From Limosilactobacillus gorillae (GTDB lineage: Bacteria > Pseudomonadota > Alphaproteobacteria > CAAGCB01 > CAG-977): a stretch of 56,684 bases of DNA. The DNA lies in NCBI GenBank assembly GCA_963604715.1, contig CAVCSV010000010.1, forward strand, positions 1 through 56,684, written 5' to 3'. Every line of letters starts with the position of its first letter. Position 1 is the first letter of the stretch. The notes under the pieces were generated by a model. The model did not search any database. It worked only from the letters and a program-made list of their open reading frames with translations, and was not told the DNA's origin. Shown piece after piece: positions 37,739 to 56,493 of this stretch. The translations under genes were made by a program, and so were the position numbers.

Positions 37739-37815
37739 CGGAGTGTAGCTCAGCTTGGTAGAGCACTACGTTCGGGACGTAGGGGTCGTAGGTTCAAATC
37801 CTATCACTCCGACCA
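37739..37815 (+). tRNA. tRNA-Pro (anticodon CGG)
   Basis: A cloverleaf can be read by hand. The acceptor stem is CGGAGTG/CACTCCG, followed by discriminator A and an encoded CCA. The D-arm is TAGCTCAGCTTGGTAGAGCA. The anticodon stem is CTACG/CGTAG with loop TTCGGGA. The T-arm is GGTTCAAATCC. Confidence 0.93.
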
Positions 37816-41332: not shown

Positions 41333-41335
41333 TCG

Positions 41336-41366
41336 AAAAAGAGCGTCAACGCGCGCTCTTTTTTAT
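41336..41366 (+). terminator. Intrinsic terminator separating the housekeeping genes from the T4SS operon
   Basis: aaaaagagcg tcaacgcg cgctctttttt, followed by atttttg. Confidence 0.7.
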
Positions 41367-41409: not shown

Positions 41410-42099
41410 ATGGAAAAAAGTATGCCTACAGCGAACGCACGCGCAAAACCGACCCAACGACACGCCGCAAAACCTGCGGCGGACAGCGGATTCAACCGTT
41501 GGCTGTCGCGTGTTTTCGCCGTGATTTGCTTCGCTTTGACGGCAACGCTGACCGTGTTTTCGCTGTCGCTGTTGCACTTGACGGGCGAAACGGAGGTTGA
41601 CGCCGTGTTGGCGACTTCGCCGACGTATTCCGAAAATCTGGCGTATTTCGACCCTCTGCATCCCGAAATGCCCGCAATGGACATTTTGTCCGAAATGTTC
41701 GTGCGCCAGTTCATCACCGTTGCGAACACCGTTTACAAAGATCCGCACGAAATGTTGCGCATGTGGGGCGGCAGCGGCATTGTCCGCTATATGTCGTCGC
41801 CGAAAATTTACGGCGAATTCTGGGACAGGGTCAGCCATACCTACTTTGACGGCGAAAATCCGCCGAAAATCACGATGGAGCCGCACATTCGCCGCATTTT
41901 GAAAGAAGGCTGGAACAACTGGCAGATTTTTTTCGAAACGCGGACGATGCGTTCGAACATCGACAAACCGAAAATCGATTACTGGATTGCAACGATTCAA
42001 TTCAGGTATTATTCTTACAACGCCGTGATGTTCAGACGACTGCGCAATCCGATGGGCTTTACGGTAACCCAATACCACTTGGCGCGGCAAAAAAAGTAG
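41410..42099 (+). CDS. virB8: VirB8-family T4SS inner-membrane protein, paralogue 1
   Basis: A short cytoplasmic N-terminus is followed by one TM segment (VFAVICFALTATLTVFSLSLL) and a periplasmic NTF2-like region. The C-terminus has the VirB8-typical motif WIATIQFRY...RNPMGFTVTQY. Confidence 0.75.
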   Translation: MEKSMPTANARAKPTQRHAAKPAADSGFNRWLSRVFAVICFALTATLTVFSLSLLHLTGETEVDAVLATSPTYSENLAYFDPLHPEMPAMDILSEMFVRQFITVANTVYKDPHEMLRMWGGSGIVRYMSSPKIYGEFWDRVSHTYFDGENPPKITMEPHIRRILKEGWNNWQIFFETRTMRSNIDKPKIDYWIATIQFRYYSYNAVMFRRLRNPMGFTVTQYHLARQKK

Positions 42100-42314: not shown

Positions 42315-43094
42315 ATGGCAAGACCGATTAAACGACAGCCCGTTGCTTTGAAAAAAGAAACCGCCGCCCCCGCTCCCGAAAAAAGCGATGCGGACGAAGC
42401 GGTTTCCGTCAAAGCGCGGAAAAAAACGCCGCAGATGCCGTCGGACGACGAATTGTCCGTCGATTTGCTGCGCGAACGCCGCTATTTGTGGACGGCGCGC
42501 GCTTTCGCGATTGTGTCGGCGGTGGCGCTGTGCGTCAATCTGGTTTTGATGATTGCCATGTTCAACCTGATGCCGCTGAAGCGGGTCGAACCGTTTTTGC
42601 TGACGTTCCAAAGCAAAGCCGACCAAGTCGTGCGCATTCGTCCGCTGTCCCGCGATTTGGGCGCCGAGGATTTGCTGACCGAAGCCATGATTCGGCAATA
42701 CGTCCTGTTGCGCAACACGATGATTGCCGACGTTGACGAAATGGCGTTCCGATGGGGCAACGACGGTCCTTTGCGCTGGATGTCGTCGCCCAACGTTTAC
42801 AAACAATTCGCCAAAACGGTCAAAGACTGGCTGGCGCGCATCAAGCTGGAGGGACTGACCCGCGAAGTGCGCATCGAATCCGTTGTCCGTCAGCAGGACA
42901 TCTGGATTGTTTACATTATGACGCGCGACATGCTGCCCGAAGCGGATCAGCCCGTGACTCAGCGTTGGCGCGTCAAGCTGAAAGTCCGCTACTTCGCAAT
43001 GCAGTCGAAAAACGAAGTCAAGTATGCCGACCGACTGAAAAACCCGCTGGGGTTCGTCGTTTTGGCTTACGCAATCGAAAGTGCTAATGATTAA
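42315..43094 (+). CDS. virB8: VirB8-family T4SS inner-membrane protein, paralogue 2
   Basis: One TM segment (AFAIVSAVALCVNLVLMIAMF) is present. The C-terminus reads WRVKLKVRY...KNPLGFVVLAY. Confidence 0.8.
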   Translation: MARPIKRQPVALKKETAAPAPEKSDADEAVSVKARKKTPQMPSDDELSVDLLRERRYLWTARAFAIVSAVALCVNLVLMIAMFNLMPLKRVEPFLLTFQSKADQVVRIRPLSRDLGAEDLLTEAMIRQYVLLRNTMIADVDEMAFRWGNDGPLRWMSSPNVYKQFAKTVKDWLARIKLEGLTREVRIESVVRQQDIWIVYIMTRDMLPEADQPVTQRWRVKLKVRYFAMQSKNEVKYADRLKNPLGFVVLAYAIESAND

Positions 43095-43106: not shown

Positions 43107-44621
43107 GTGCAGAATAACAAAACAATTCGCCTGTTTGCTTTGGCTTTGACGATGACGGTTGCCGTTCCCTGCGGTGTTTCGGCTCAGCAGTCCGCCGCGC
43201 GCGAATCCATGGATGCCGCAATCGAACAGTCCAACGGGGATTATTCGGAAATCGACATGCCCTATTTGTGGTCGCTGGGCATGCAGCAAAAGGCATGGAA
43301 CAAACCGCTGGAACATCTGGGCGAAGGGCAGTCCAAGCCGGGGTATTCGCGTTATTTCTGGTCGCCCGATTTGGTGTTGCCTTTGCGTATCCGCGAAGGG
43401 ATGCACACCTTAATCAATTTCCCGTCGTGGGAATTCATCGACAACGTGTTTTTAGGCAACGAAAGCGCTTTCGGGGCGCAGAAAGTCGCGCCGAACGGGC
43501 TGATGGTGTTCGCCAACAATCCCGAACTGGTCGGCATGGATACGAATATGATTGTGTTCGGCAGATCGGGCAACCGCTATGTGTTCTATTTGCGCAGCGA
43601 AACGTTCAACGCGGACAGAATCACCAACGCCGTGGTCGACATTATCGTCAACGACGACAAATATGTGCCTGATGATTCGGGCAAAACGCCCTTTGCGTCG
43701 GGTACGGTCGGCGGCGGGGCTTCCCCTGCGGGCGCAGTTGCGGGACAAAACGGGAAAAAGGGCAAAAAACTGAAATTTTTCGACCCGATGAACGATTGGC
43801 TGGAAGATTTGGACGTCGACCCCGAAAAACTGAAATTCGACATCGACGTTTTCATTCCCAATCCCGAAGATATGGAAATCGCCCCCGAACGCGTGTGGCG
43901 CGACGAAATTTTCACTTACATCGATTTGGGACCGAAAGCGCTGACGATGCTGCAGCGTCCGATTGTCAACCTGCTGGTTCAGGGCAGCGAAGTGCCCGTC
44001 GGATTCAGAACTCGCGGTCCGAACGGTCGGCTGATTGTGGTCGAGGGCATCGGGGATTTGGTTCTGCGCAACGGCAAACGCCTGTTGTGCCTGAAAATCC
44101 GCAAGGATCCGAGCTTCGGAACGGATTGGGTCGAATATGAAAAATCCGTTCAGCCCGCTTACACGCCCGCGCCGATGCGCACGCCGGGAGTGGCGCCGAT
44201 GGGCGCGAACGCGGTTGCGAACGAACAGGCGGCTCAGCAAATGGCGCAGCAATCCATGCAAAACAGGATGATGCGTCAGCAAATGGCGGACAATATGTCT
44301 TTGACGGGGATGAACGCGCAGATGTCGGCGTCGTTTGCGAACCGCTACCGCCGCGCCGCCGCCGAATCGATAGCCATCGAGCTGGGGGCGGATGCCGAAA
44401 TTTCGGCTTTGGAACAAAAATGGGATAACATTTACCGCAAAAACAAAGATTTGTTGGCGAACTTCGAACCGTATTATTCGGTCGACGCCGTCGCGGAAGG
44501 CGAAACAAGCGATTTGTTCCGTCTGCGCATCGGACCCGTCGGATCGATTAAAGACGGCGACAAACTTTGCGGACAGCTGGGTCGGCGCGGTGTCACCTGT
44601 ATCGTGGTGCGGACGCAATGA
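43107..44621 (+). CDS. virB9: VirB9/CagX/TrbG-family T4SS outer-membrane core protein with a C-terminal SPOR-like domain
   Basis: The ORF starts with GTG after an aagaggg RBS and encodes a signal peptide. VirB9 N-domain-like sequence is TNMIVFGRSGNRYVFYLRSE, and C-domain-like sequence is VWRDEIFTYIDLG...LIVVEGIGDLVLRNGKRLLCLK. The last ~80 aa are SPOR-like (LFRLRIGPVGSIKDGDKLCGQLGRRGVTCIVVR). Confidence 0.8.
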   Translation: MQNNKTIRLFALALTMTVAVPCGVSAQQSAARESMDAAIEQSNGDYSEIDMPYLWSLGMQQKAWNKPLEHLGEGQSKPGYSRYFWSPDLVLPLRIREGMHTLINFPSWEFIDNVFLGNESAFGAQKVAPNGLMVFANNPELVGMDTNMIVFGRSGNRYVFYLRSETFNADRITNAVVDIIVNDDKYVPDDSGKTPFASGTVGGGASPAGAVAGQNGKKGKKLKFFDPMNDWLEDLDVDPEKLKFDIDVFIPNPEDMEIAPERVWRDEIFTYIDLGPKALTMLQRPIVNLLVQGSEVPVGFRTRGPNGRLIVVEGIGDLVLRNGKRLLCLKIRKDPSFGTDWVEYEKSVQPAYTPAPMRTPGVAPMGANAVANEQAAQQMAQQSMQNRMMRQQMADNMSLTGMNAQMSASFANRYRRAAAESIAIELGADAEISALEQKWDNIYRKNKDLLANFEPYYSVDAVAEGETSDLFRLRIGPVGSIKDGDKLCGQLGRRGVTCIVVRTQ

Positions 44622-47600
44622 ACGAAGAATTACTCAGCTCATCGGACAAATATCTGAAGAAATCCAACCGGACTTTGCTTCTGGTTGGAATCTTCGCGTT
44701 TTTGGCTTTTTTCGTCGGCTTGATTATTCTGCTGAGCGGCGGCGAAAAGCAAAAGGAAGACGCAAAGGCAACCGTCGATGGGGCGAGTGACGCTTTTACC
44801 GACATTTCAGGCGGCGGGGCGGACAACTTTGCCACGTTCGACGAACCGTCCAGTTCGATTAAGCTGAACATCACGCCGGAATCCCTGCGCTTCGACCAAG
44901 TCGTGCTGGGGACTTCGGCAGAAGGCGCGATTACGATTACGCCGTCTGCGGGGCGCGTCAGCATTATGGAAATCGGGTTCGAAAACAACCCCGACGACGG
45001 CTTCAATTTGGAAAGCAAATGCAAGCCGAACGATGTTTTGACCCCCGATTTGTCCTGTACCGTCGTTGTCAAATGGGAACCGAAGACCGCGCGGACGATT
45101 CAATCCAACTTGGCGATTAAGTGGCGCGACGAAACGGCGGGCGCAATCGGCAAAACGGTGCTGGTTTCCGTGTCCGCCATGGCAATCGACACCAGCCTTT
45201 GCGGCGTGTGCGACGAAGCGCCGGGCGGCGGAACGACCGCTGACCAGCTGCGGCAAAAAGGACGCTTGATTCTGGGACCCGACGGCAAGCCTATCGGGTA
45301 TGCCGACGAAAACGGCGTTGTGTACGGCTTGGACGGCAAGCGTATCGGCACTTTGCGCCCCGACGGAACGGTGGTCGACGATCAGGGCTACATCATCGGC
45401 GTTGCGGAGGGCGTGCGCGTCGCTTTGGGTCCCGACGGCAGCATTATCGGAACGATTCTGCCCGACGGTCGCGTGATTGACAAAGACGGCAACCTTATCG
45501 GCTATGCTTTGCCCGACGGAACAATCGTCGATTTGAACGGCAATGTTATCGGTATGGCGATTCGGACGGGAACGGCGGTCGACAAAGACGGCAACGTCAT
45601 CGGGCGCGTGATGCCCGACGGGCGCGTGCTGGACGAAAACGGCAATCTTATCGGTTATTTGAACCCCGACGGAACGATTGTCGATTTGAACGGCAACATC
45701 ATCGGTTCGGTGATGCCTTCGGGAACGGTCGTCGACTATTTGGGGCGCGTGCTGGGCATTGTTTTGCCCGACGGGTCGGTCGTTGACGTGGACGGCAATA
45801 TCGTCGGGCGCGTTTTGCCCAACGGCATTGTGCTGGACAAGGACGCCGTGCCTATCGGACGCGTGATTCAGGAAGGTCTGGCAATGGGTCCGGGGTGCAA
45901 GCCTTTGGGGCGCGTCGCCACGGACGGTTCGGTGATGTCTTCGAACAGACAGGTTGGTCGTCTGACCGCGTCGCGTCTGGTGCTGGATATGAGCAACAAT
46001 CCCATCGGCAGCTATGTGCTTGAGGGGGCTTTGCTGGACTGGGACGGCAAAATCATCGGAAAAATCAACGCCGACGGTCAGCCCGTTTCGTTCAAGGACG
46101 AACCGTTGGGCTGTTTGCTGCCCAATACGTTCGTGGTCAACGACAACGAAGAAATGATTGCCGCGACGCGTCCGTTCGGAACGGTCGTCGGAACGTCCTG
46201 CGGATTTGAGGGACGCGTCATGCCTGACGGCTCCGTCGTTCAAAACGGTGAAATGAAAGGGCGCATTCTGCCCGACAAAACGTTTTTGAGAACGGACGGC
46301 ACCATCGGCGGCGCGATTGCGCGCGCGGACATCGGGCTGGCTTCGGGGTGTTCGACTTTGGGCTTTGCCGACATCGAAGGGCAGATGAAAACGACCAAAG
46401 GCGAATATGTCGGCTGTCTGGCGGCGAACGGCAACGTTTTGGATGACAAGTATGTCGTTTTGGGGCGCGTGACGGAAGCGCGCACCGCTTTGGGCATTGA
46501 CGGGCGCGTTGTCGGGCTGGTGGACGGCGCGGGCAGAGCCATTGACAGAAACGGAAAAGTGTTCGCCTGCATGGATGCCGAATATGTCGCGATTTCCGAA
46601 GACAAGGGCGAGCCGATGGGGATTTCCGCCCCCGAAGGCGGCGTGCTGGACCGCGACGGGCGGACAATCGGCTGGGTGATGCCCGACGCTTCGGTCAAAA
46701 ACACGCAAGGCGGCGCAGTCGGCAAAACGCTGGGCGATTCGTCCGTTATCGATATGAACGGACAGAAAATCGCGCGCGTCGTTCCGTATCAGGGACTGCC
46801 TTTGAAAAGCGCGTGCGAACCGATAGGTCGGATTTTGAAAGACGGGCGCGTCGTCGACAAAGACTTCAAACGCGTGGCTTATCTGCACATGGACGATTCG
46901 CTGACCGACGAAAAAGACAACTTTATGGGACGTCTGGCGATGGCTCAGCACGGTATCGACACGCGCAGCAACTATGTCGGGTCGGTGGACGATACGGGCG
47001 CTTTAATCAATCAGGCGGGCGAAAAAGTCGGCTGTTTGCGTCCCGACAACGTATTCGTCGATTCGGACAACAAATTCAAAGCGGCGCAAATGCTGACGGG
47101 ACTTGCCGTCGATGCCAAGACGGATTTGTATGCGCGCGGCGATTCAATCGGCAAAGCGCTGAATTTGAAAGGGACTGAATTCGTTGGCAAAACGCTGGTC
47201 AGCACTTACATCCGAACGGACCGGAAAATCGTAACGGGCGGCATTATTCCGTCGGGGGCAACGGTTTTGGACATCAAAACCAGCAAGCCCATCGGGCGGT
47301 TACTGCCCGACGGGACGGCGGTCAATCTGCAAAGCCGTTATTTGGGACGCTTGAAAATGCCGGGCGGCGACGTTGTCGACCGCGCGGGAACGGTTGTCGG
47401 TAAGATTTTTGTCGGATTGCAGCAGGTTATCGGACCGAACGGCGAAATTTTGGGTGTTGTTCTGTCCGACGGCACGGTGATTGACGAATTCGGGCGCGTT
47501 ATCGGGCACGCGGATTTGGACGGCAAAGTCGTTGACAAAGACGGCAAAGTCATCGGCGAAGTCTTGCCCGTCGGCATGCCCGTTTTGGGTCCCGACGGCA

Positions 47601-50600
47601 AAATCATCGGCTATGTCGGGCTGAACGGCGAAATCGTCGATGAAGACGGCAATCCCGTAATGGGACCCGACGGCAAACCTTTGCGTTATCGCGCGGGTGG
47701 CATGGTTGTCAGCGCGGACGGCAAAGTCGTCGGCTACATCCTGCGCGACGGCTTGGCAATCGATTTCGGCAACAAAGTTTTGGGCGCGATTGACGCGGCG
47801 GGCGTCGTCAAAGACAAAAGCGGCAAAGAATCGGGCACGATGCAGGTCGACGGAACAGTCGTTGACAAACTGGCGAAACCGATTGGGCGCGGTTTGGTGA
47901 ACGCCGTTCCCGTCGCCAGACAATGCAGGGCTTTGGGAACGCTGAACGCGGACGGCAAGGTGGTTTCCTCTGCGGGGGATGAACTGGGCTTTGTCACTTA
48001 CGACCGCGCCGTTCTGGACAAGGAACACAAGCAAATCGGCATTGCGCTCAGCCCCGATTCCGTGATTGACAGACCGTGCAATATTGTCGGCGAAATCGGA
48101 CGCGACGGCAAAGTGCGCAACCAAAACGGCAAAGAAATCGGCTGTGTCGATTTCGACGGAACGGTTGCGGATAAAAACACGAAAAGAATCGGTGCCGTCA
48201 TTCAAAAAGGCGCCGTTATCGGCTTTGACGGCAAAGTGTTCGGCAAAGTCGTCCCCAGCGGCGAAGTGCTGGACGACGGCGGCAAAGCTTTGGGCTGTTT
48301 CGGTTTGGACGGTGCGGTTTTCGACAAAAGCAACAAGCTGACGGGCGTGTCCGACGTGATGAAATACGCCGTGGACAACAAAGGAACCGTCGTTGCGCGC
48401 ATTGTCGGCGGCAATTATGCGGTTTCTTTGGAAAACGACACGTCCGTCGGCACGATGAAAAACGGCAAGCTGCAGGATGCCAAAGGGGCGGAAATCGGCA
48501 TTGCCGTTCCTGCGGGACGCCGCGTCATCGGGCGCGACGGGCGGATAGTCGGCACGGTTTTGCCCAAAGGCGGCGTGATTGACGACGACGGCAAGGAAAA
48601 AGGCATTGTCACCGCCAAAATGAAGGCGATTACGGCGGACAGGAAATTCTTGGGGCGTGTCGTTCCGATTGGCGAAGAATGCAAAGACAAAGAAAACAAA
48701 ATCGTCGGTAAAGTTCATTTCGACGGCACAATCGTCGACGAAAACGTCGAAGTGCTGGGGCGTTTGATGGCGGACGGCACGGCGCTGAGCAACGCTGGAA
48801 CGTATCTGTGTTCGATTTCCCCGATGAATATCATCGACGATGCTTGGATTGGCAAAGCGGTTTACGACGCGAACGGCAACCTTATCGGCTATGTGGACGA
48901 AGACGGCTTTGTGCGCGACGCGAACGGCAACATCATCGGTCGTGTTCTGCCCGACGGGACGGTCGTGGATTTGAACGGCAACGTCATCGGTTCCGTTTTG
49001 GAAGGCGAGCCGATTTATGACGAAAACGGCAACCTTATCGGCATCATTCTGCCCGACGGGCGCGTTGTCGATTTGAACGGCAATTTACTGGGACGCATTA
49101 ACGCCGACGGCGAAATCGTCGACGAAGACGGCAATGTCATCGGTATTTGGAAAAACGGCAAGCTGATTACGAAAGGCGACAAGCTGAAGCCGCGCTTTGC
49201 TTTTGGCAAGGACGGCAAACGTATCGGCATGATTTTGTCGGACGGAACGATTGTCGACGACAAAGGAAACGTTATCGGACGCATTGACGAAGACGGCAAC
49301 ATTCTGGATTTGGACGGCAATATCATCGGCGAACATATCGAAGACAAAGGCAAAGTGTCCGTATTCGGAAAATTCGACCCCGACGCGTACCGCTACCGTG
49401 GCAAAAATTTGGGCGCGGGCGGCGGCACGGGCAAAGGCGAACGCTACGACCCCGCGCGCATCAAGGAATTGCGCGCAAAACAAATGGCGTACCGCCGCAT
49501 GATTCGTCCCGGTTTGGGCGCGGCGGCAAGCGAGGATTCCGAAACCGCGTTGCTCAACAAACAGCACAGAGCCAAAAACTGGGTCGGAATCGGTCAGAAG
49601 AAAACCGTATCGTCCTACCGCGTGAACATGGACAATATGATTCTGGCGGACAAGGCAATTCCCGCCGTTTTGACGCGCTCCATCGATTCGCTGTATTCGG
49701 ATGCGCCCGTATCCGCGGTTGTCGAACGCAACGTTTATTCGGAAAACGGGCGCAAGGTCATCATTCCCGCGGGCAGCCGTTTAATCGGCGAACTGTCGGG
49801 CAATGCGGGCGGTTCCGACACACAGCAAATCACCGTCAAAATGCAGGTCAAATGGACGCGTTTGATTCGTCCCGACGGCGCGGCGTTTACTTTTGTGGAC
49901 GGATCTTCGGGCGATGCGCAGGGACGGGAAGGCATTTCGTCCTATGTCGATTTGCAGCTACTTAAAAAATTCGGCACGCCTTTGATGCAGAGCACGATTT
50001 CTTCGGCGATTTTGTGGGCTATGTCGTCCAATTCAAAACCCGAAGTCGGCAACGACGGCGAAATCGCTTTAAGCGACCGTCAGCAGGCGGCGCAGGATGC
50101 GCGTTCGAAATTCTCGGACGACATGCAAACCATGTTTGACGAAATTTTCAAAATGACATCCAAAATTCCCGTCCGTTCTTATGTTCCGTCGGGAACGCGC
50201 ATTACCGTTTTTGCGGGCGAAGACTTGTGGTTGCGTTCGGAAGTCGAGGACAAGGAAGGCGAATTGGCAAGACCCGAAGGGTTGGTCAACGAGGATTTGG
50301 GAACCGAAAAAGACGATATGGAAAAACGTGAAAACGCCCAAAACAATCAGGGGACGGGACAGGTCAATTCCCAACAGCAGCAGGGCGCCGCGCCGAACAA
50401 TCCGCAGCAACAGCAGCAGCTTTACTACAACAGCTACGGTCAGCCGCAGATGCCGCAGCAGGGCGGGCTGATTTCCCAGACCCCGCCGCAGCAGGGATAT
50501 TATGCGCCCCCGCCCGGATATTACGGATACGGGTACGGCGGTCAGCCGCAGATGCAGCCGCAAAGCCAGCTACTGACGCCGTCGCAACCGTCAACGCAGC

Positions 50601-50665
50601 AAAGACGCGTCCAGACCGTCAAAGAGGAAACAAAAGACGAAGACCCCGCGCCGGAACTGTTCTAA
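44618..50665 (+). CDS. virB10: Giant VirB10/TrbI-family T4SS core protein (2015 aa) carrying an array of about 80 x 17-aa repeats
   Basis: The ATG at 44618 forms an ATGA overlap with the virB9 stop. The TM segment is LLLVGIFAFLAFFVGLIILL. The C-terminal TrbI/VirB10 barrel reads AIPAVLTRSIDS...VIIPAGSRLIGE...VKWTRLIRPDGAAF...GDAQGREGISSYVD. The repeat array and Q/P/Y tail are covered in the findings. Confidence 0.88.
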   Translation: MNEELLSSSDKYLKKSNRTLLLVGIFAFLAFFVGLIILLSGGEKQKEDAKATVDGASDAFTDISGGGADNFATFDEPSSSIKLNITPESLRFDQVVLGTSAEGAITITPSAGRVSIMEIGFENNPDDGFNLESKCKPNDVLTPDLSCTVVVKWEPKTARTIQSNLAIKWRDETAGAIGKTVLVSVSAMAIDTSLCGVCDEAPGGGTTADQLRQKGRLILGPDGKPIGYADENGVVYGLDGKRIGTLRPDGTVVDDQGYIIGVAEGVRVALGPDGSIIGTILPDGRVIDKDGNLIGYALPDGTIVDLNGNVIGMAIRTGTAVDKDGNVIGRVMPDGRVLDENGNLIGYLNPDGTIVDLNGNIIGSVMPSGTVVDYLGRVLGIVLPDGSVVDVDGNIVGRVLPNGIVLDKDAVPIGRVIQEGLAMGPGCKPLGRVATDGSVMSSNRQVGRLTASRLVLDMSNNPIGSYVLEGALLDWDGKIIGKINADGQPVSFKDEPLGCLLPNTFVVNDNEEMIAATRPFGTVVGTSCGFEGRVMPDGSVVQNGEMKGRILPDKTFLRTDGTIGGAIARADIGLASGCSTLGFADIEGQMKTTKGEYVGCLAANGNVLDDKYVVLGRVTEARTALGIDGRVVGLVDGAGRAIDRNGKVFACMDAEYVAISEDKGEPMGISAPEGGVLDRDGRTIGWVMPDASVKNTQGGAVGKTLGDSSVIDMNGQKIARVVPYQGLPLKSACEPIGRILKDGRVVDKDFKRVAYLHMDDSLTDEKDNFMGRLAMAQHGIDTRSNYVGSVDDTGALINQAGEKVGCLRPDNVFVDSDNKFKAAQMLTGLAVDAKTDLYARGDSIGKALNLKGTEFVGKTLVSTYIRTDRKIVTGGIIPSGATVLDIKTSKPIGRLLPDGTAVNLQSRYLGRLKMPGGDVVDRAGTVVGKIFVGLQQVIGPNGEILGVVLSDGTVIDEFGRVIGHADLDGKVVDKDGKVIGEVLPVGMPVLGPDGKIIGYVGLNGEIVDEDGNPVMGPDGKPLRYRAGGMVVSADGKVVGYILRDGLAIDFGNKVLGAIDAAGVVKDKSGKESGTMQVDGTVVDKLAKPIGRGLVNAVPVARQCRALGTLNADGKVVSSAGDELGFVTYDRAVLDKEHKQIGIALSPDSVIDRPCNIVGEIGRDGKVRNQNGKEIGCVDFDGTVADKNTKRIGAVIQKGAVIGFDGKVFGKVVPSGEVLDDGGKALGCFGLDGAVFDKSNKLTGVSDVMKYAVDNKGTVVARIVGGNYAVSLENDTSVGTMKNGKLQDAKGAEIGIAVPAGRRVIGRDGRIVGTVLPKGGVIDDDGKEKGIVTAKMKAITADRKFLGRVVPIGEECKDKENKIVGKVHFDGTIVDENVEVLGRLMADGTALSNAGTYLCSISPMNIIDDAWIGKAVYDANGNLIGYVDEDGFVRDANGNIIGRVLPDGTVVDLNGNVIGSVLEGEPIYDENGNLIGIILPDGRVVDLNGNLLGRINADGEIVDEDGNVIGIWKNGKLITKGDKLKPRFAFGKDGKRIGMILSDGTIVDDKGNVIGRIDEDGNILDLDGNIIGEHIEDKGKVSVFGKFDPDAYRYRGKNLGAGGGTGKGERYDPARIKELRAKQMAYRRMIRPGLGAAASEDSETALLNKQHRAKNWVGIGQKKTVSSYRVNMDNMILADKAIPAVLTRSIDSLYSDAPVSAVVERNVYSENGRKVIIPAGSRLIGELSGNAGGSDTQQITVKMQVKWTRLIRPDGAAFTFVDGSSGDAQGREGISSYVDLQLLKKFGTPLMQSTISSAILWAMSSNSKPEVGNDGEIALSDRQQAAQDARSKFSDDMQTMFDEIFKMTSKIPVRSYVPSGTRITVFAGEDLWLRSEVEDKEGELARPEGLVNEDLGTEKDDMEKRENAQNNQGTGQVNSQQQQGAAPNNPQQQQQLYYNSYGQPQMPQQGGLISQTPPQQGYYAPPPGYYGYGYGGQPQMQPQSQLLTPSQPSTQQRRVQTVKEETKDEDPAPELF
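45263..49330 (+). repeat. In-frame tandem array with a 51-nt (17-codon) period inside virB10
   Basis: Consecutive units parsed by hand include TILPDGRVIDKDGNLIG, YALPDGTIVDLNGNVIG, MAIRTGTAVDKDGNVIG, RVMPDGRVLDENGNLIG, YLNPDGTIVDLNGNIIG and IVLPDGSVVDVDGNIVG. 4068 nt divided by 51 gives about 80 units. Exact 17-21-nt DNA repeats recur at 45486, 48873 and 49026, and at 45527, 45680 and 49067. Confidence 0.9.
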
Positions 50666-50683: not shown

Positions 50684-51661
50684 ATGTCGACAGATGCTTT
50701 TCAGGTGTTGAAATCGGTTTTGCGCTACTTGTCCTATTGGTACGAACAGGACAACGTGGAAGAAGTCGCCATCAACCGACCCGACGAAATCTGGCTGCGT
50801 TTGCGCGGGCGGCGCGCGCATCCGTGGGCGTGTCAGCAGGACAAAAACCTGTCCAGAACGTATTTGATGGATTTGATGCATATCATCGCCAACACGTTCG
50901 AATTGCCTTTCGATCCCGAAACGGGTTCGCCCGCCGTATACGCGACTTTGCCGGGGGATCACCGTTTTACGGGCATTGCGGGCAAAAACGTGATGTACGA
51001 CAACGAAGATTTGACGGGCGGTATCGCCATGTGCGTCCGCGTCCATTCCGACGACGTTAAATTCGGGCTGGGCGATTACGGATTGAAAGCGGGCGAACGT
51101 CTGCAAAAGCTGAATAAATTGAAAGAGGTCGAAAACCCCGAAGACCCCTACGAACGTTTAATCCTGTCCATCAAGCGCGGCGACCACATTTTGGTTTCCG
51201 GTGCGACGGCGACAGGTAAAACAACGTTTTTGAACAACCTCTTAACGATTCTGGATTCGCACAAGCGCGTCATTACAATCGAAGATACGCGCGAATTGAT
51301 TGTGCCGCATCCGAACCATGTTCACTTGGTTTTGTCGCGTACCGAACAAACGAACACGATGACGTATCCGAAGCTGATTGACTTGGTCGTGCGTTTTACG
51401 CCCGACGCGATTATCGGCGGTGAAATTTCAACGGCGAATGCGGGGGCGTTGTGGGAACTGATGGGGTCAGGGCACGACAACTGCTTTGCAACCATCCACG
51501 CGGAAAGCTCGGAAGCCGCCTACAAAGCGTTTACCGACCGTATTCTGCACTGTTACCCGACTATCGACCGCGAAAAAACGATTGCCGAAATGCACGACAA
51601 ACTGCGTGTCGTTCAAATCAACCGTCAGGGCAACATTCGCGCGGTTACCGAAGTTACTTAA
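50684..51661 (+). CDS. virB11: VirB11-family T4SS traffic ATPase
   Basis: Walker A is LVSGATATGKTTFLN, followed by VITIEDTRELI. The His-box region is PDAIIGGEISTANAGALWELMGSGHDNCFATIHA. Confidence 0.88.
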   Translation: MSTDAFQVLKSVLRYLSYWYEQDNVEEVAINRPDEIWLRLRGRRAHPWACQQDKNLSRTYLMDLMHIIANTFELPFDPETGSPAVYATLPGDHRFTGIAGKNVMYDNEDLTGGIAMCVRVHSDDVKFGLGDYGLKAGERLQKLNKLKEVENPEDPYERLILSIKRGDHILVSGATATGKTTFLNNLLTILDSHKRVITIEDTRELIVPHPNHVHLVLSRTEQTNTMTYPKLIDLVVRFTPDAIIGGEISTANAGALWELMGSGHDNCFATIHAESSEAAYKAFTDRILHCYPTIDREKTIAEMHDKLRVVQINRQGNIRAVTEVT

Positions 51662-53065: not shown

Positions 53066-53096
53066 AAAAAAGCCTCCGCAAAACGGAGGCTTTTTT
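53066..53096. terminator. Bidirectional intrinsic terminator
   Basis: aaaaa gcctccg caaaa cggaggc tttttt lies between convergent genes. Confidence 0.8.
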
Positions 53097-53112
53097 GTAT
53101 CCGCGCGTTTTT

Positions 53113-56100
53113 TTATTCCGCGCCGAATTTTTCTTCCGCCATTTTCTGGGCGGACACATAGTCGAATTTGCCCGTTCCCAAAATGGGCGGTTCTTTGACG
53201 ACGATGATTTTCGACGGCGTGCCGAGGTCGTTCAGCCCCGCTTGTTTGACAAACGCGCGGATTTGCGCCGCATCGGCGTTTTCCGCCGTGGTAATCAGCA
53301 CCAGCTGTTCGCCCTTTTTCGGGTCGGCGATGGCGACGACGCCCTGAACCGCGCCTTCGTACAGTTTCGCCAGTTCCTGTTCAATCGCCGTCAGCGAAAT
53401 CATTTCGCCGCCGATTTTTGCGAAGCGTTTGGCGCGTCCTTTAATCGCGACAAAGCCGTCTTTGTCAATCGCGACAATATCGCCCGTGTCGTGCCAGCCG
53501 TCTGCGGGCGGCTGCAGGACGCAGGGATTGTCGGCTTTCATATAGCCCTGCATGATGTTGTCGCCGCGCACGAACAGCCGCTTGCCGTCAGCAATGCCGG
53601 GGACGTCTTCCAATCGGGCTTCCAGTCCGGGGATAAGACGGCCGACCGTGCCCGCCTTGATGTACATCGGCGTATTCACCGCAATCAAGGGCGCGGCTTC
53701 GGTTGCGCCGTAGCCTTCCAAAATGCGGATGCCGAATTTTTTGCTCCACAGTTCGGCGGTGGTTTCTTTCAGCTTTTCCGCGCCGACGATTGCATAACGC
53801 AAAGCAAAGAAGTCATACGGGTGCGCCGACGCGCCGTAACCCGCAAAGAACGTGTCCGTACCGCACAAAATCGTCGCGTTCGTGGCATAAACCAGTTCGG
53901 GAACGATGCGGTAGTGCAGAGGCGACGGATAATAAAACGTCTTGATGCCCGACAGTGTGGTCAAAATCGTTCCGATGCCCAACCCGAACGCGTGGAACAT
54001 CGGCAGAGCGTTGAAGAACACGTCGTTCGAATTCAAATCCAGAATGCTCAGCGCCTGATACCTGTTCGCTTGGAAATTGATGTGCGACAGCAAAACGGCT
54101 TTGGGCATGCCTTCGGAACCCGACGTGAACAAAATCGCCGCCGTTTGGTCCGCCGTGTGTTTGGGTTTGCGCGAAATCAAACAATCGACGATGCCGTGGA
54201 ATTTGTCTTCGCCCGAAACCTGTTTGGCGAAATCTTCCATATAAACCAGATTGATGCCCGCGTCGATGATGGCGGCTTCCAGTTTTTCCAGCTTGCCGCC
54301 CTCGATGAATTTGCGCGATGTTACAACCGTTTTCAAGCCGACCGTTTTAATGCAGGACAGCACTTGCGCGATGCCGCTTGAAAAATTCAGCATGGCGGGG
54401 ACTTTGTCGCGGCTTTGCAGGGCAAAGAACACGACCAAATTCGCTAAAACGTTCGGCAGCAGAATGCCCAATCGTTCTTCGGTCGGGAACAGGCGGTCGA
54501 ACGTGCGTCCCAAAACATAGCTTTTCAGAATCAACGTCTTGTAGCGCAAGGGTTTGCGGTTGACGTCCTCGGCGATGACGTGGTGCTTGCCGTGGATTTT
54601 CTGTGCGTTCAAAAGCCCTGTGAACAGGTGTTCGTTGATTTTGGACGACGCGTACATCATTTCCGACATCATCGTATACAGCTGCAGCGACACTTCGTGG
54701 TTGCGCTGGCGTCCCGTCAAAGCGGGGTCGATGTCGAACTTTTTGTGCGGCATGATGTTGACGGTGATTTTGGGGAAGTATTGCGTTTTGAACTTTGTTT
54801 TCAGCAAAGAAAACTTGGAATACTGCGCCCCGTTGATGCGCACGGGCAGGATGTTCGCGTTGGCTTTTTCCGCGACGATGCCCGCGCCTTCGTACACTTT
54901 CATCAAAGCGCCCGTGACGCTGATGCGCTGTTCGGGGAAAATCATCACTTTGTTGTTGCGTTTAATCAAGTCGATTAACGAACGCAAAGACAGTGGGTTG
55001 TTCAAATCCAACGGGTACAAATCCACCATCAGCGCAAAGAATCGCGCAAACCAGCGTTTTTCCCATTCGGGTTTGATGACGAACGTAATCTTTTCGGGCA
55101 TGAAAGCCGCAATCAGCAGCCCGTCCAGCAAAGACGTGTGGTTGGCGACAATCAAAACGCGCTTGCCAGCGTCTTGGAAATTGGGCAAGCCTTTGACGGT
55201 CACGCGGAACAGCGTTTCCAGAATCGTTTGCGCGATGGAACGCACCAAAGCCGCGGGCAGGACCGAGCAGTTGTAGACCGATACGACGAAGCTTGCCAAA
55301 GCAAACAGCAGGAAAATGGCGGGAATGCTCAGTTCGAAATGGCGCAAAACGGCGACAATCAGTGCGACGACGGCAATACCCGCCGCGTTGATGATGTTGT
55401 TTGCGGCAAACACGGCGGCGCGGTTGGCGTCGGTCGCTTTCTTTTGAATCAGGTTGTTCAGCGGCGTGATGTACATCCCGCAGCAGAACGCCAGCAGGAA
55501 AAAGAAAAAGCAGAACACTGCGGGACGGAAGCGCGTGACAAACTCGACAAAATCAACACGTTCGGCAGGTGTTCCGTAGCCCAAAGTCAAAACGGACAGC
55601 GCCAAGAAACAGGCGGCGATGCCCAGCGTGCTGATGGGAACGTATGTCGTGTGAACGACGCCGCGCAACAACCGCGTGCAGTAGGCAACGCCGACGCCGA
55701 CTCCCAGCGCGTACAGGCTGAGCAGGAAAGCGGCGGAAACCGCGTCCGTGTTGAACACTTGCGTAATCAGCGGATAAGTCAGCAAAATAACCAGCAGACC
55801 CAGCGACCAAAACCACGTCGCGCCCAAAATACTGCGGTACAGCAACGGATAACGGCGCACCGTGCGCAGGGTGGAACGGATGCCTTTGAGGATATTGCCG
55901 TCGAATTTTTTCAAATCGGGTTCGGGGGCGGCTTCGGCGACGGAGCGGGTTGCCAGATAGCTTGCCAGCGACAGGACAATCAAGCACAGCGCGGCGATGC
56001 GCACGGGCAGCAGAACGCCGATTAAAATCGCGGCAATGATGCTGACGTAAGTCGATTTCGACGTATAGGCGTTGCTGCCGATAAAGTCCTTTTCATCCAG

Positions 56101-56493
56101 CCGTTCGGGTTGCAAAGCGTAGCGGATGGGACCGAAAAACGCGGACAGCGTGCCGAACAAAACGGGCAATAAAATCAGCAATCCCGCATTGTTGGCAAAG
56201 AAAACCAGCCCCGCCGTCAGCATCAAAGCCAGTTCGACCAGCTTGACGGAGCGGGTCAGCTTGATGCGTCCGTACTTTCTTGCCAGAATGGTTGCGCGCG
56301 CCGAAAACAAAAAGAACGGCAGCAACAGCAAACCCGCAATCAGGTTCGACGGGTCGGGCGATTGCTGGGTGATGCGCACGGCGATAATGGCAAGCAAAGC
56401 GATTTTAAACAAGCTGTTTGTCAGTCCGTCGAACAAAACGGCGAACAGCCCTTTGGCGGCTTTGGTCAGGTTTTCTGTGGAATGTGAAGACAT
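53113..56493 (-). CDS. aas: Fused MFS lysophospholipid transporter (LplT-like), 2-acyl-GPE acyltransferase and acyl-ACP synthetase (Aas)
   Basis: The N-terminal ~400 aa are polytopic and MFS-like. The middle PlsC-type domain has IVANHTSLLDG and FPEQRIS. The C-terminal AMP-binding domain has ILFTSGSEGMPKAVLLSH, EGYGATE and DTGDIV..D.DGF. The protein is 1126 aa. Confidence 0.85.
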   Translation of the reverse strand: MSSHSTENLTKAAKGLFAVLFDGLTNSLFKIALLAIIAVRITQQSPDPSNLIAGLLLLPFFLFSARATILARKYGRIKLTRSVKLVELALMLTAGLVFFANNAGLLILLPVLFGTLSAFFGPIRYALQPERLDEKDFIGSNAYTSKSTYVSIIAAILIGVLLPVRIAALCLIVLSLASYLATRSVAEAAPEPDLKKFDGNILKGIRSTLRTVRRYPLLYRSILGATWFWSLGLLVILLTYPLITQVFNTDAVSAAFLLSLYALGVGVGVAYCTRLLRGVVHTTYVPISTLGIAACFLALSVLTLGYGTPAERVDFVEFVTRFRPAVFCFFFFLLAFCCGMYITPLNNLIQKKATDANRAAVFAANNIINAAGIAVVALIVAVLRHFELSIPAIFLLFALASFVVSVYNCSVLPAALVRSIAQTILETLFRVTVKGLPNFQDAGKRVLIVANHTSLLDGLLIAAFMPEKITFVIKPEWEKRWFARFFALMVDLYPLDLNNPLSLRSLIDLIKRNNKVMIFPEQRISVTGALMKVYEGAGIVAEKANANILPVRINGAQYSKFSLLKTKFKTQYFPKITVNIMPHKKFDIDPALTGRQRNHEVSLQLYTMMSEMMYASSKINEHLFTGLLNAQKIHGKHHVIAEDVNRKPLRYKTLILKSYVLGRTFDRLFPTEERLGILLPNVLANLVVFFALQSRDKVPAMLNFSSGIAQVLSCIKTVGLKTVVTSRKFIEGGKLEKLEAAIIDAGINLVYMEDFAKQVSGEDKFHGIVDCLISRKPKHTADQTAAILFTSGSEGMPKAVLLSHINFQANRYQALSILDLNSNDVFFNALPMFHAFGLGIGTILTTLSGIKTFYYPSPLHYRIVPELVYATNATILCGTDTFFAGYGASAHPYDFFALRYAIVGAEKLKETTAELWSKKFGIRILEGYGATEAAPLIAVNTPMYIKAGTVGRLIPGLEARLEDVPGIADGKRLFVRGDNIMQGYMKADNPCVLQPPADGWHDTGDIVAIDKDGFVAIKGRAKRFAKIGGEMISLTAIEQELAKLYEGAVQGVVAIADPKKGEQLVLITTAENADAAQIRAFVKQAGLNDLGTPSKIIVVKEPPILGTGKFDYVSAQKMAEEKFGAE

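Follow-up and report, generated by a model that had tools for sequence, protein, structure and literature searches.

A giant VirB10 with a conserved array of beta-hairpin repeats in type IV secretion loci of uncultured gut Alphaproteobacteria

Results

The virB8-virB11 locus

The window, by which we mean the whole stretch of 56,684 nucleotides that was analysed, contains a cluster of type IV secretion system (T4SS) genes; elsewhere it carries housekeeping genes such as nusA, infB, polA and metK. All features described below lie on the forward strand. A terminator-like hairpin with a 12-pair stem and a T run (41335..41364) adjoins the first virB8 gene upstream, and is probably the 5' boundary of a virB8-virB11 operon. 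It is followed by two virB8 paralogues, encoding proteins of 229 aa (virB8a, 41410..42099; Pfam VirB8, E = 2.9e-10) and 259 aa (virB8b, 42315..43094; Pfam VirB8, E = 9e-23, and also NCBIfam VirB8), each present in 69 of the 80 related loci. Next comes a virB9/CagX homologue of 504 aa (43107..44621; Pfam CagX, E = 3.6e-12; 75 of 80 loci) with a C-terminal peptidoglycan-binding SPOR domain (aa 458-502, Pfam). Its stop codon overlaps the start codon of the giant virB10 gene in an ATGA (44618..50665; 2015 codons plus stop). The last gene encodes a VirB11 ATPase of 325 aa (50684..51661; NCBIfam VirB11, E = 3e-43), found in 79 of the 80 loci at 65-100% identity. The translationally coupled order virB8-virB8-virB9-virB10-virB11 is thus kept in 69-79 of the 80 loci. 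Neither the window nor the 10-kb flanks of the related loci contain virB2-B6 or virD4.

VirB10 is the bridge between the inner and outer membranes. The preliminary description of this DNA had recognised a VirB10 homologue, and this is borne out by its single N-terminal transmembrane helix, its TrbI barrel and its virB8-virB9-virB10-virB11 context. The open reading frame (44567-50665) has its first ATG at 44618 and encodes 2015 aa with no internal stop or frameshift. A short cytoplasmic tail precedes the transmembrane helix (aa 21-39, LLVGIFAFLAFFVGLIILL, 44678..44734), the only Kyte-Doolittle window above 3.0 in the protein. An Ig-like domain of the choice-of-anchor D/ASH type with conserved Cys residues follows (aa 83-170, 44864..45127), matching NCBIfam choice_anch_D at E = 2.2e-6, which is under the cut-off of that model, and Pfam ASH at E = 0.026. 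After it comes a conserved CxxC (aa 195-198). At the other end of the protein, a non-repeat linker delimited by sequence and family alignment (aa 1572-1675, 49331..49642) leads to the TrbI/VirB10 beta-barrel domain (aa 1676-1873, 49643..50236; Pfam TrbI, E = 6.1e-32, profile positions 2-188 of 188). The motif VKWTRLIRPDG, earlier assigned to a canonical barrel, does lie inside this full-length match. Homologues of the barrel in the PDB include ComB10 (4.9e-14), CagY (4e-9 to 8e-8), VirB10, TrwE and TraF, and its best-scoring models are VirB10 and ComB10, not IcmE. The Q/P/Y/G-rich low-complexity tail (50258..50662) is the fastest-evolving region of the protein, but it keeps a conserved ...LF end, with F2015 nearly invariant across the family alignment.

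An array of about 80 hairpin units

Between the N-terminal part and the barrel, as first described, aa 216-1571 (45263..49330) form a tandem array of beta-hairpins, with about 80 units of 17 aa. Its coordinates, its lag identity and a parse into units all agree with the number and length of units originally claimed. The array has 1356 aa, or 79.8 x 17. Averaged over all lags, sequence identity is 0.08, but it rises to 0.24 at a lag of 17 aa and to 0.20 at both 34 and 51 aa. A dynamic-programming parse gave 83 segments, of which 62 have exactly 17 aa, nine have 18 and three have 16; lengths other than 17 were penalised, but the register was nevertheless set by the terminal hydrophobic-Gly. The family consensus of the unit is x-V-L-P-D-G-x-V-V-D-x-(N/D)-G-x-V-I-G, and the example units quoted previously, including TILPDGRVIDKDGNLIG, were found at their places. 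The impression that the ends are near consensus and the centre diverged is essentially right, because the top-scoring units are at aa 245-397 and 1425-1571; another near-consensus pair lies at aa 947-980. Unit types recur with a three-unit superperiod. The DNA of the array has diverged, and the sole tandem repeat that Tandem Repeats Finder detects is 153 nt x 1.8, with 78% identity. Near the C-terminal end, a variable, near-consensus and YD-like sub-array (aa 1413-1509, 48854..49144) has units of the form x-P-V-Y-D-x-N-G-x-L-I-G, and the NCBIfam YD_repeat_2x matches are found here.

AlphaFold2 predicts a single confident all-beta body for 31 units (pLDDT 89.5, pTM 0.87), with similar local confidence for 12 units (pLDDT 90.3, pTM 0.76), and places strands of 5 and 3 residues in alternation every 17 aa. 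In a direct-coupling analysis of 2935 seven-unit windows both hairpin ladders reappear, and the strongest coupling joins position 13 with position 1 of unit +5. The suggestion that the units are beta-hairpins is therefore supported by predicted secondary structure and covariation: in each unit two strands pair into a hairpin, with one turn at P-D-G and the other at D-x-(D/N)-G. Foldseek searches with these models against solved structures gave no global match (TM-scores <=0.19), and the significant E-values reflect only local hairpin similarity. The protein also has six Cys pairs spaced by 72-73 aa, a number reached in none of 20000 shuffles; the 73-aa spacing dominates in 176 family members, and the Cys count is even in 84%. 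We infer from this spacing that the pairs are disulfides formed in an oxidising compartment. A contact at 73 aa spans about 4.3 units, against a superperiod of three, and the two spacings do not readily combine in one geometry.

The unit had been thought to differ from YD/Rhs repeats and from those of the G-x-V-V-D-x-D-G-x-V-I-G type, to which DUF3659 corresponds. This does not hold, since those models match the array above threshold: Bflower_2, Bflower, DUF3659 and RHS_repeat (Pfam), as well as YD_repeat_2x (NCBIfam), all exceed their own thresholds, Bflower_2 at 292 bits against a cut-off of 38. The 17-mer is thus a member of the beta-flower/DUF3659/YD group of hairpin repeats, and no new repeat type. 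The likeness to beta-flowers (PF21784/PF21785) and DUF3659 (PF12396) consists of strong HMM matches (292, 116 and 75 bits) and of a shared hairpin "petal" that carries a [DNEQ]xxG motif at its tip. However, each described beta-flower closes into one barrel of about 96 aa built from 8, 10 or 12 strands, and many of them are lipoproteins (Durairaj et al. 2023, PMC10584680), whereas the array has about 160 strands without domain breaks, a 3-unit periodicity with no 4- or 5-unit one, and loops of 4-5 residues on either side, where beta-flowers have 9 and 4. YD/Rhs repeats (PF05593, TIGR01643) give the best local structural similarity and resemble the C-terminal sub-array, but the array has a period of 17 aa and short strands, is embedded in a T4SS subunit, matches no toxin, plug or autoprotease family, and shows no global superposition on them (TM <=0.16).

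Conservation across the family

Among uncultured gut and rumen Alphaproteobacteria, 334 species-level genomes encode relatives of the protein, and the 17-aa period is present in all 120 listed homologues. In 50 of 56 relatives the region aligned to aa 211-737 stays within 521-560 aa, even where identity falls to about 30%, and the remaining six have insertions there that bring it to 720-834 aa. The dN/dS of the array is 0.03-0.15, compared with 0.09-0.16 for the barrel, which shows that the array is under strong purifying selection, with nothing to suggest diversifying selection. In one clade the gene is split in two: the first half comprises the transmembrane helix and array, and the second a Sec-type signal peptide, array and barrel. 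The same 17-aa hairpin repeat also occurs in some DotG/IcmE proteins (P0199, P0205, P0209, P0211, P0222, P0224, P0240), where it occupies the place of the Legionella DotG repeats; P0199, whose locus was looked up, sits among icmN-M-L-K-E. The Legionella repeats are pentapeptides, and the window protein has no Pfam match to the Pentapeptide family. The preliminary description had allowed that the unit might be a characterised repeat routinely found in related VirB10 proteins. This is partly so, given its presence in the VirB10 of 334 species genomes and in some DotG/IcmE proteins, but the repeat family has been characterised only computationally.

Discussion

Our results show that, from inner-membrane anchor to outer-membrane barrel, an Ig-like domain and about 80 hairpin units occupy the place of the usual short linker of VirB10. 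The T4SS encoded here is best explained as a chromosomal, vertically inherited system of uncultured gut Alphaproteobacteria, and we think it probable that the array of its giant VirB10 forms a rigid periplasmic scaffold that replaces this linker. The covariation ladders, Cys pairs, three-unit recurrence, low dN/dS and signal peptide of the split clade favour a rigid structure in the periplasm over a surface fibre.

Two known subunits offer the closest comparisons. DotG/IcmE of Legionella and Coxiella also belongs to the VirB10 family: it is anchored in the membrane at its N-terminus, has a TrbI barrel at its C-terminus and between them a long region of tandem repeats, for which the proposed role is the periplasmic cylinder of the channel. 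The number of these repeats differs from species to species and from strain to strain (PMC6761968). The window protein differs by its place in a virB8-virB11 cluster, which is type IVA-like, whereas DotG belongs to the type IVB Dot/Icm system, and its array exceeds those of the DotG proteins with the 17-mer by a factor of 3-10 in length and lacks their Pro/Thr linkers between three-unit modules. CagY of Helicobacter pylori is of comparable size (about 1900-2000 aa), with very large repeat regions before a homologous C-terminal barrel, and gains and loses repeat blocks in-frame. Yet its repeats are unrelated in sequence, and the repeat models that match the array include no CagY family. Moreover, CagY rearranges through highly similar DNA repeats in a process linked to immune pressure, according to PMC5954226, whereas the DNA repeats here are diverged and the array is under strong purifying selection.

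The length of the window copy deserves caution. All four closest relatives contain 189 aa that this copy is missing at about aa 1427 (nt ~48896), a junction where relatives carry 189-336 extra residues. No other of the 177 full-length family members is as short (1483 aa, with the 5th percentile at 1671 aa). Hence the subunit of 2015 aa stands as the length of the reading frame, but this length is probably atypical of the family. One might see in this, in the fact that the protein forms a singleton cluster, and in the missing stretch being exactly that between two similar repeat copies in relatives, signs that the array or its length arose only through misassembly. We find this barely credible. 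Identical 2201-aa proteins occur on dozens of independent contigs and the 2203-aa form likewise in many assemblies, the frame is uninterrupted, the family spans hundreds of species and the DNA repeats have diverged, so the array itself is neither artefact nor broken gene. As for the gap, the DNA copies that flank it in L001 share only 74% identity and no exact run longer than 23 nt, which is short for k-mer collapse, so that the gap fits a real in-frame deletion. Comparable 79-aa block alleles, such as proteins of 2290 and 2211 aa at 99% identity, each occur in several assemblies.

Such block-number polymorphism, including the 189-aa deletion, could also fit an array exposed on the outside of the cell, where it would serve as a fibre, sheath or adhesin touching host or prey cells, as proposed for CagY repeats. 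Repeat regions of CagY and DotG have been argued to be host-exposed and strain-variable (PMC6761968 and PMC5954226), and local Foldseek matches include fibre-like hairpin repeats (adenovirus fibre, MORN proteins). Nevertheless, the array lies between the inner-membrane helix and a barrel that docks under the outer membrane, the second half of the split form is Sec-exported with its barrel still C-terminal, diversifying selection is not seen, and unit number is fixed across the family in the N-terminal two-thirds. We thus regard external display as improbable, and topology, signal peptide and purifying selection make a surface fibre the least likely of the three shapes initially offered (stalk, sheath or surface fibre). 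It is somewhat less improbable, but still unlikely, that the array mainly binds peptidoglycan or another envelope glycan, anchoring or positioning the machine in the cell wall instead of scaffolding the channel. [quoted passage not shown] 2023, PMC10584680). But TM-scores to choline-binding modules are 0.10-0.13, the consensus has no evident aromatic-rich binding motif, known wall-binding modules are far smaller than eighty units per chain, and VirB9 already supplies wall anchoring through SPOR. Finally, the above-threshold YD_repeat_2x and RHS_repeat matches, and top Foldseek E-values to Rhs and teneurin shells (3e-16 to 1e-9), might evoke a closed cocoon enclosing cargo or toxin. This is very improbable: TM-scores are 0.03-0.16 with an rmsd of 17-31 A, YD matches are limited to the C-terminal sub-array, strands have 3-5 residues in a period of 17 aa, no toxin or autoproteolysis domain was found by family match or annotation, and a VirB10 barrel follows the array.

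If the array is indeed a periplasmic scaffold, it would fold there into one rigid, continuous, disulfide-stapled beta superstructure, and not as beads on a string. By analogy with the DotG and CagY repeat regions, it probably stands in for the usual VirB10 linker. Multiplied by the usual oligomeric state of VirB10, it may build an enlarged periplasmic cylinder, stalk or cage, which would sit between the inner-membrane complex and the outer-membrane cap; PMC6761968 cites cryo-ET of a central-channel cylinder formed by DotG. The N-terminal two-thirds would be a fixed scaffold, and blocks of units would be gained and lost at two sites, near aa 1035 and aa 1427, by in-frame recombination.

No paper describing such a repeat-filled VirB10 was found in the literature searched, in line with the original proposal of an undescribed form. 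Overall, this giant VirB10 is conserved across hundreds of species of gut Alphaproteobacteria, and if our interpretation is true, its array would do what the repeats in the middle of DotG are held to do in the Dot/Icm system.

A giant member of the VirB10 family

The giant virB10 gene occupies an uninterrupted reading frame of the forward strand (listed at 44567-50665), whose first ATG, at 44618, forms an ATGA overlap with the stop codon of the preceding gene. Translation from this codon yields the 2015-aa product that the preliminary description had claimed. The C-terminal beta-barrel of the VirB10/TrbI family is present at aa 1676-1873, where the Pfam family TrbI (PF03743) matches with E = 6.1e-32 (111 bits against a cut-off of 35) over positions 2-188 of the 188 in the profile. 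The last 444 aa match the PDB structures of ComB10 (E = 4.9e-14), CagY, Xanthomonas VirB10, TrwE and TraF. The protein also has the bitopic inner-membrane topology of VirB10, a short cytoplasmic N-terminus followed by one transmembrane helix: its sole hydrophobic helix is at aa 21-39 (score of 3.09, all other windows scoring 1.7 or less). As is typical of virB10, the gene lies between virB9 and virB11 in a virB-type cluster, and this position is kept in related loci. Members of the family cross the outer membrane with a two-helix antenna projection, and a candidate helix-loop-helix-like stretch (YVDLQLLKKF...SKFSDDMQTMFDEIF) can be read in our protein.

VirB10/TrbI proteins have a short proline-rich periplasmic linker and a total length of ~380-500 aa. 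Here, an Ig-like domain and an array of 1356 aa stand in the place of the linker, bringing the total to 2015 aa. The Ig-like domain, of the choice-of-anchor D / ASH type and with conserved Cys residues (44864-45127, aa 83-170), and a conserved CxxC motif (aa 195-198) are located between the transmembrane helix and the array; canonical VirB10 has neither. The barrel is followed by a low-complexity tail rich in Q, P, Y and G (50258-50662, aa 1881-2015) with a near-invariant C-terminal ...LF. The tails of other clades are rich in Ser and keep the LF ending. The equivalog-level NCBIfam models were not reached (T4SS_VirB10, 105 bits against a cut-off of 220; ComB10, 99 against 300). The protein is a member of the VirB10 family and not an equivalog of a named subtype.

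The neighbors of the gene are two tandem, diverged VirB8 paralogues (41410-42099 and 42315-43094), a VirB9/CagX homologue with a C-terminal SPOR domain (43107-44621), all on the forward strand, and a VirB11 ATPase. Duplicated virB8 genes are known from the rvh system of Rickettsiales, which the two paralogues recall. Many more distant loci apparently have a single virB8, because both VirB8 queries match the same place. The SPOR domain (aa 458-502) is of a peptidoglycan-binding type, and its fusion to VirB9 suggests a tether between the core complex and the cell wall. The VirB9 orthologue (513 aa) of the related locus L070 appears to have a similar C-terminal end. A terminator-like hairpin is found upstream of the first virB8 (41335-41364), and a scan for promoters and terminators gave nothing else beyond shuffle expectation. 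The remaining secretion-system genes are absent from the window and from the 10-kb flanks of related loci. Housekeeping genes make up the remainder of the window (addA/addB-like, metK, rimP-nusA-infB, polA, psd and pssA), and the virB cluster is therefore chromosomal. The AddA/AddB-type helicase-nuclease pair spans 1092-7326 of the reverse strand. The same strand encodes a secreted protein that combines Big-type Ig-like domains with a LysM domain (36701-37663) and an 1126-aa fusion of an MFS transporter, an acyltransferase and an AMP-binding domain, of the Aas-like lysophospholipid recycling type (53113-56493). An ORF of 428 aa opposite the latter (53095-54381, forward strand) matches no family and is likely spurious. 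The sole RNA gene found in the window is a tRNA-Pro with anticodon CGG (37739-37815, forward strand).

Periodicity of the array

The array (45263-49330, aa 216-1571) has 1356 residues, or 79.8 x 17. Its residue identity is 0.24, 0.20 and 0.20 at lags of 17, 34 and 51 aa, against a mean of 0.08 over all lags, i.e., the 17-aa periodicity is far above chance. Segmentation anchored at the terminal hydrophobic-Gly gave 83 pieces, 62 of them of exactly 17 aa. All units quoted in the preliminary description were found in the protein. The scores of the unit profile peak at aa 245-397 and 1425-1571, and the statement of the preliminary description that the ends of the array are near consensus and the center has diverged is therefore essentially correct. 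The DNA copies have diverged: we detected a single repeat, of 153 nt x 1.8 with 78% identity.

Conservation and split genes

In a protein search, over 100 clusters, with lengths of 1500-2600 aa, shared the Pfam set of our protein. They come from MAGs labeled 'Alphaproteobacteria bacterium', and NCBI names them 'hypothetical', 'DUF3659 domain-containing' or 'TrbI/VirB10 family'. The best period was 17 aa in all 120 proteins analyzed among the matches listed. A scan with one genome per GTDB species found relatives encoded in 334 genomes. By their MAG labels, the best 80 loci are from uncultured Alphaproteobacteria, proteobacteria and Rhodospirillales-type taxa, among them bins of the 'Azospirillum sp.' and 'Acetobacter sp. 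CAG:977' type; the samples were of human gut, rumen, horse, rabbit and the like. The exception is L021 (CAVDQP010000011.1), which carries the alphaproteobacterial virB8-virB9-giant virB10-virB11 locus under the label of the Firmicute Holdemanella biformis, most likely by bin contamination. The order virB8-virB9-virB10-virB11 is kept in 69-79 of these 80 loci. Identical proteins of 2201 and 2203 aa were recovered from numerous independent contigs, 33 in the case of one protein.

The counterpart of aa 211-737 has 521-560 aa in 50 of 56 relatives, even at ~30% identity (720-834 aa, with insertions, in the other six), and family alignments show conserved residues that are specific to individual units. 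The N-terminal part of the array is therefore an ancient scaffold of fixed length. Relative to four relatives with 80-97% identity, dN/dS is 0.03-0.15 in the three segments of the array, as low as or lower than the 0.09-0.16 of the TrbI barrel, and shows strong purifying selection on the array; the C-terminal tail is the fastest-evolving part of the protein. This comparison showed no sign of diversifying selection, whereas PMC6761968 reports such selection in the host-exposed regions of CagY or DotG.

The giant virB10 of one clade consists of two neighboring genes instead of one. In L070 (10001-13936 and 13940-18625), the first ORF (1311 aa) encodes the transmembrane helix, the Ig-like domain and ~60 units, and the second, 4 nt downstream, opens with MNKKTLLKLFVTFQLSIFSFSVHAA, after which come further units, the barrel and the tail. 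At least 13 loci have this pattern (further split loci are L044, L046, L055, L056, L064, L065, L067, L068, L071, L072, L073, L078 and L080). Among the database homologues, P0096-P0120 are second halves that start with Sec-type signal peptides followed by EITAIDFNGD... units, and P0101 is a matching N-terminal half. The split clade shows that covalent continuity of the VirB10 strut is dispensable.

Length variation

Our protein lacks 189 aa at ~aa 1427 (nt ~48896) that are present in its four closest relatives, and is 92% identical to one of them, P0002, outside this gap. The span from the CxxC motif to DKAIPAV (1483 aa) is the shortest among 177 full-length members (5th percentile of 1671, median of 1702). 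In the relatives, the stretch is flanked by two copies of EDGFVRDANGNIIGRVLPDGTVVDL, and our sequence shifts from copy-1-like to copy-2-like at the gap. Such flanking copies might have been collapsed by the assembler, but in the locus L001 their DNA shares only 74% identity, with no exact run longer than 23 nt, which makes a collapse less likely than a real deletion. The gap, carried by one contig only, thus looks like a real in-frame deletion. For the array as a whole an artefact is excluded, the local gap possibly excepted. Two alleles of the species-level P0005 cluster (P0150, P0153-P0155, P0157 and P0161 versus P0005, P0149 and others) differ in the same variable sub-array by one five-unit block of 79 aa, at 99% identity: alleles of 2290 aa and of 2211-2212 aa are each found in several independent assemblies. 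In more distant relatives, insertions are also found at another site, near aa 1035.

Structure of the array

We modeled aa 211-737 (31 units) with AF2, using a 61-sequence alignment made from this segment and full-length database proteins. The model has a mean pLDDT of 89.5 and a pTM of 0.87 (90.3 and 0.76 for a 12-unit piece), and is all-beta: a strand of ~5 residues alternates with one of ~3 in each 17-residue period. Such a pTM over 31 units argues for an array predicted to form a single rigid body and not a string of beads. Direct-coupling analysis of 2935 distinct seven-unit windows of the family revealed a hairpin structure, with antiparallel ladders 3-7, 2-8 and 1-9 about a P-D-G turn, and 10-14 and 8-16 about a D-x-N-G turn. 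The top coupling, twofold above the next, links position 13 to position 1 of unit +5, which is 73 residues apart, and is a cysteine pair. Six Cys pairs have this type of spacing in our protein (427-499, 528-600, 578-651, 733-806, 1103-1176 and 1154-1227), a number reached in none of 20000 shuffles. Among 176 family members, 73 aa is by far the commonest Cys-Cys distance (3.4 pairs per protein), and the cysteine count of the array is even in 84% of the members.

The profiles of unit types are similar only when units are 3, 6, 9, 12 or 15 apart. The 3-unit statistic (+0.068) was matched by none of 5000 shuffles, and the 2-, 4- and 5-unit statistics are negative. Covariation, Cys pairs and superperiod fit a compact, non-flat superstructure with conserved contacts in an oxidizing compartment. 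Three-hairpin modules may be stacked along the array, or it may run as one continuous ribbon of ~4 hairpins per turn, the latter hinted at by couplings at 55-62 and 73 residues. Phase-sorted covariation, noisy at an effective sequence number of ~350-400, recovered only the Cys pair and recurrent i/i+3 couplings near the P-D-G turn.

Relation to known repeats

The preliminary description had called the units reminiscent of, but not the same as, known repeats. Yet, several Pfam and NCBIfam models match above their thresholds, and this wording is therefore too cautious. Bflower_2 (5-fold beta-flower) reaches 292 bits (gathering score of 38) in 15 stretches of the protein, Bflower (4-fold) 116 bits (25), and DUF3659 75 bits, above its gathering score. 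YD repeats are matched by RHS_repeat PF05593 (32.3 bits, cut-off of 22) and YD_repeat_2x TIGR01643 (60.4 bits, cut-off of 15.8, with the C-terminal sub-array as best stretch). Judging from these profile matches, the 17-mer is a member of the beta-flower / DUF3659 / YD hairpin-repeat group. The beta-flower families (PF21784/PF21785, clan CL0395) were defined from AlphaFold models as small closed barrels of 8, 10 or 12 strands, with hairpin 'petals' bearing a [DNEQ]xxG tip motif (Durairaj et al. 2023, PMC10584680). This motif is found at unit positions 10-13 (D/N - x - N/D - G; D 47%, N 20%, G 62%). The 15 Bflower_2 stretches hint at a tiling by 4- or 5-fold domains, but the unit similarity recurs only in multiples of three, with 4- and 5-unit statistics of -0.020 and -0.025, and covariation and Cys pairs also argue against such tiling. 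The barrels of beta-flowers are discrete and shallow, with 4-, 5- or 6-fold symmetry, and the array may be built otherwise. DSSP gave loops of 4-5 residues on both sides in both AF2 models, where beta-flowers have asymmetric rims with loops of ~9 and ~4 residues.

The array lies between the inner-membrane helix and a barrel that docks under the outer membrane, and the second half of split proteins is exported alone by its signal peptide; the array is thus periplasmic. Three other readings have less support: a surface fiber, a wall-binding module and an Rhs-like cocoon. The last would fit the YD matches and the significant E-values of Foldseek searches of the PDB to YD shells of Rhs, Tc toxins and teneurins, but TM-scores to Rhs shells are 0.03-0.16. 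Rhs toxins have a closed shell and an autoproteolytically released C-terminal toxin; our protein has no match to toxin or protease families and ends in a VirB10 barrel. Weaker Foldseek matches include choline-binding modules, fascin and ricin B, with TM-scores of 0.19 or less and rmsd of 15-30 A throughout the PDB matches. Those to viral models (BFVD) include adenovirus fibers and MORN-repeat proteins, at similarly low TM-scores. No fold can be assigned from these searches, since all TM-scores are at most 0.19. The comparison proposed in the preliminary description hence found a familiar local hairpin geometry, and no solved structure with the same global arrangement. In sequence and profile searches of the PDB, the array matched nothing besides a bactofilin, marginally (E = 0.009); the antiparallel ladders rule out the beta-helix that this match would imply. 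Pentapeptide and bactofilin-type repeats form one parallel beta-helix coil per repeat, unlike the units of the array, and Pfam gave no Pentapeptide match.

The 17-mer in DotG

The 17-aa repeat is rare, since a search with 12 units against 1.84 billion representative proteins gave only 736 matches at E <= 1e-3. The complete proteins of 650-900 aa among them fit NCBIfam T4SS_IcmE_DotG at both ends (E = 1e-90 to 1e-111), and have a middle part with a 17-aa period and beta-flower and YD matches. These are DotG/IcmE proteins of type IVB systems: the database homologues P0199 (locus L081, 4585-7269), P0205, P0209, P0211, P0222, P0224 and P0240. The locus of P0199 has the arrangement icmN-icmM-icmL-icmK-icmE. 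Our protein is of another type, with a C-terminal part lacking an IcmE match (NF033900) and a virB8-virB11 context. Legionella DotG has pentapeptide repeats, in variable number, where the 17-mer DotG proteins carry the hairpin repeat. The units of the latter are grouped in threes separated by Pro/Thr-rich linkers, with the motif x-P-V-Y-D-A-N-G-x-L-L-G / Y-A-G-P-D-G-V-V-R-D-A-N-G-K-V-L-G / T-L-G-P-D-G-T-L-R-D-A-S-G-x-x-L-G. As read from these sequences, the grouping is independent support for a three-unit module. DotG forms the cylinder of the central channel, according to cryo-ET work cited in PMC6761968. On the best-supported reading, the giant VirB10 array would be a functional analogue of the repeat regions of DotG and CagY.

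Discussion

VirB10 is the energy-sensing strut at the center of every Gram-negative type IV secretion system. In the reading best supported by our results, its usual linker has been replaced, in the periplasm, by a long rigid hairpin-repeat structure that is probably disulfide-stapled. Established here are the identity of the protein, its gene context and conservation, the periodicity, the hairpins, the conserved Cys spacing, the split form and the purifying selection; disulfides, three-dimensional shape, stoichiometry and the part played in the machine are inferred. Multiplied by the oligomeric state of VirB10, the array would enlarge the periplasmic part of the core complex. One can go further, with rather more doubt than confidence, and picture a periplasmic superstructure unlike any solved T4SS, such as a disulfide-stapled beta tube or cage made of many VirB10 copies, that would set an unusually large machine from inner to outer membrane. 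It would be divided between two polypeptides in one clade, and the same block would have been independently recruited into type IVB DotG. If so, the 17-residue hairpin would be a general 'spacer material' of VirB10-family proteins, previously unrecognized.

Repeat-expanded VirB10 homologues are already known; the literature searched contains no description of a giant repeat-filled VirB10, and none of the 17-mer form. To our knowledge, CagY and DotG are the only well-studied repeat-expanded VirB10s, and they belong to the two structurally most elaborate machines known. The family studied here would be a third repeat solution, different in sequence. It offers natural handles, namely a strut made of two proteins, conserved cysteine staples open to mutation, and alleles differing by whole blocks of units, which suit work on how T4SS assembly responds to a longer, shorter, stiffer or looser VirB10 linker. 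Through it, the beta-flower / DUF3659 group, defined computationally, would for the first time be linked to a clear cellular context. Finally, this solution is fixed throughout a lineage of uncultured Alphaproteobacteria of gut and rumen, some of them human-gut species, which suggests that these little-known bacteria depend on a secretion machine of unusual build.
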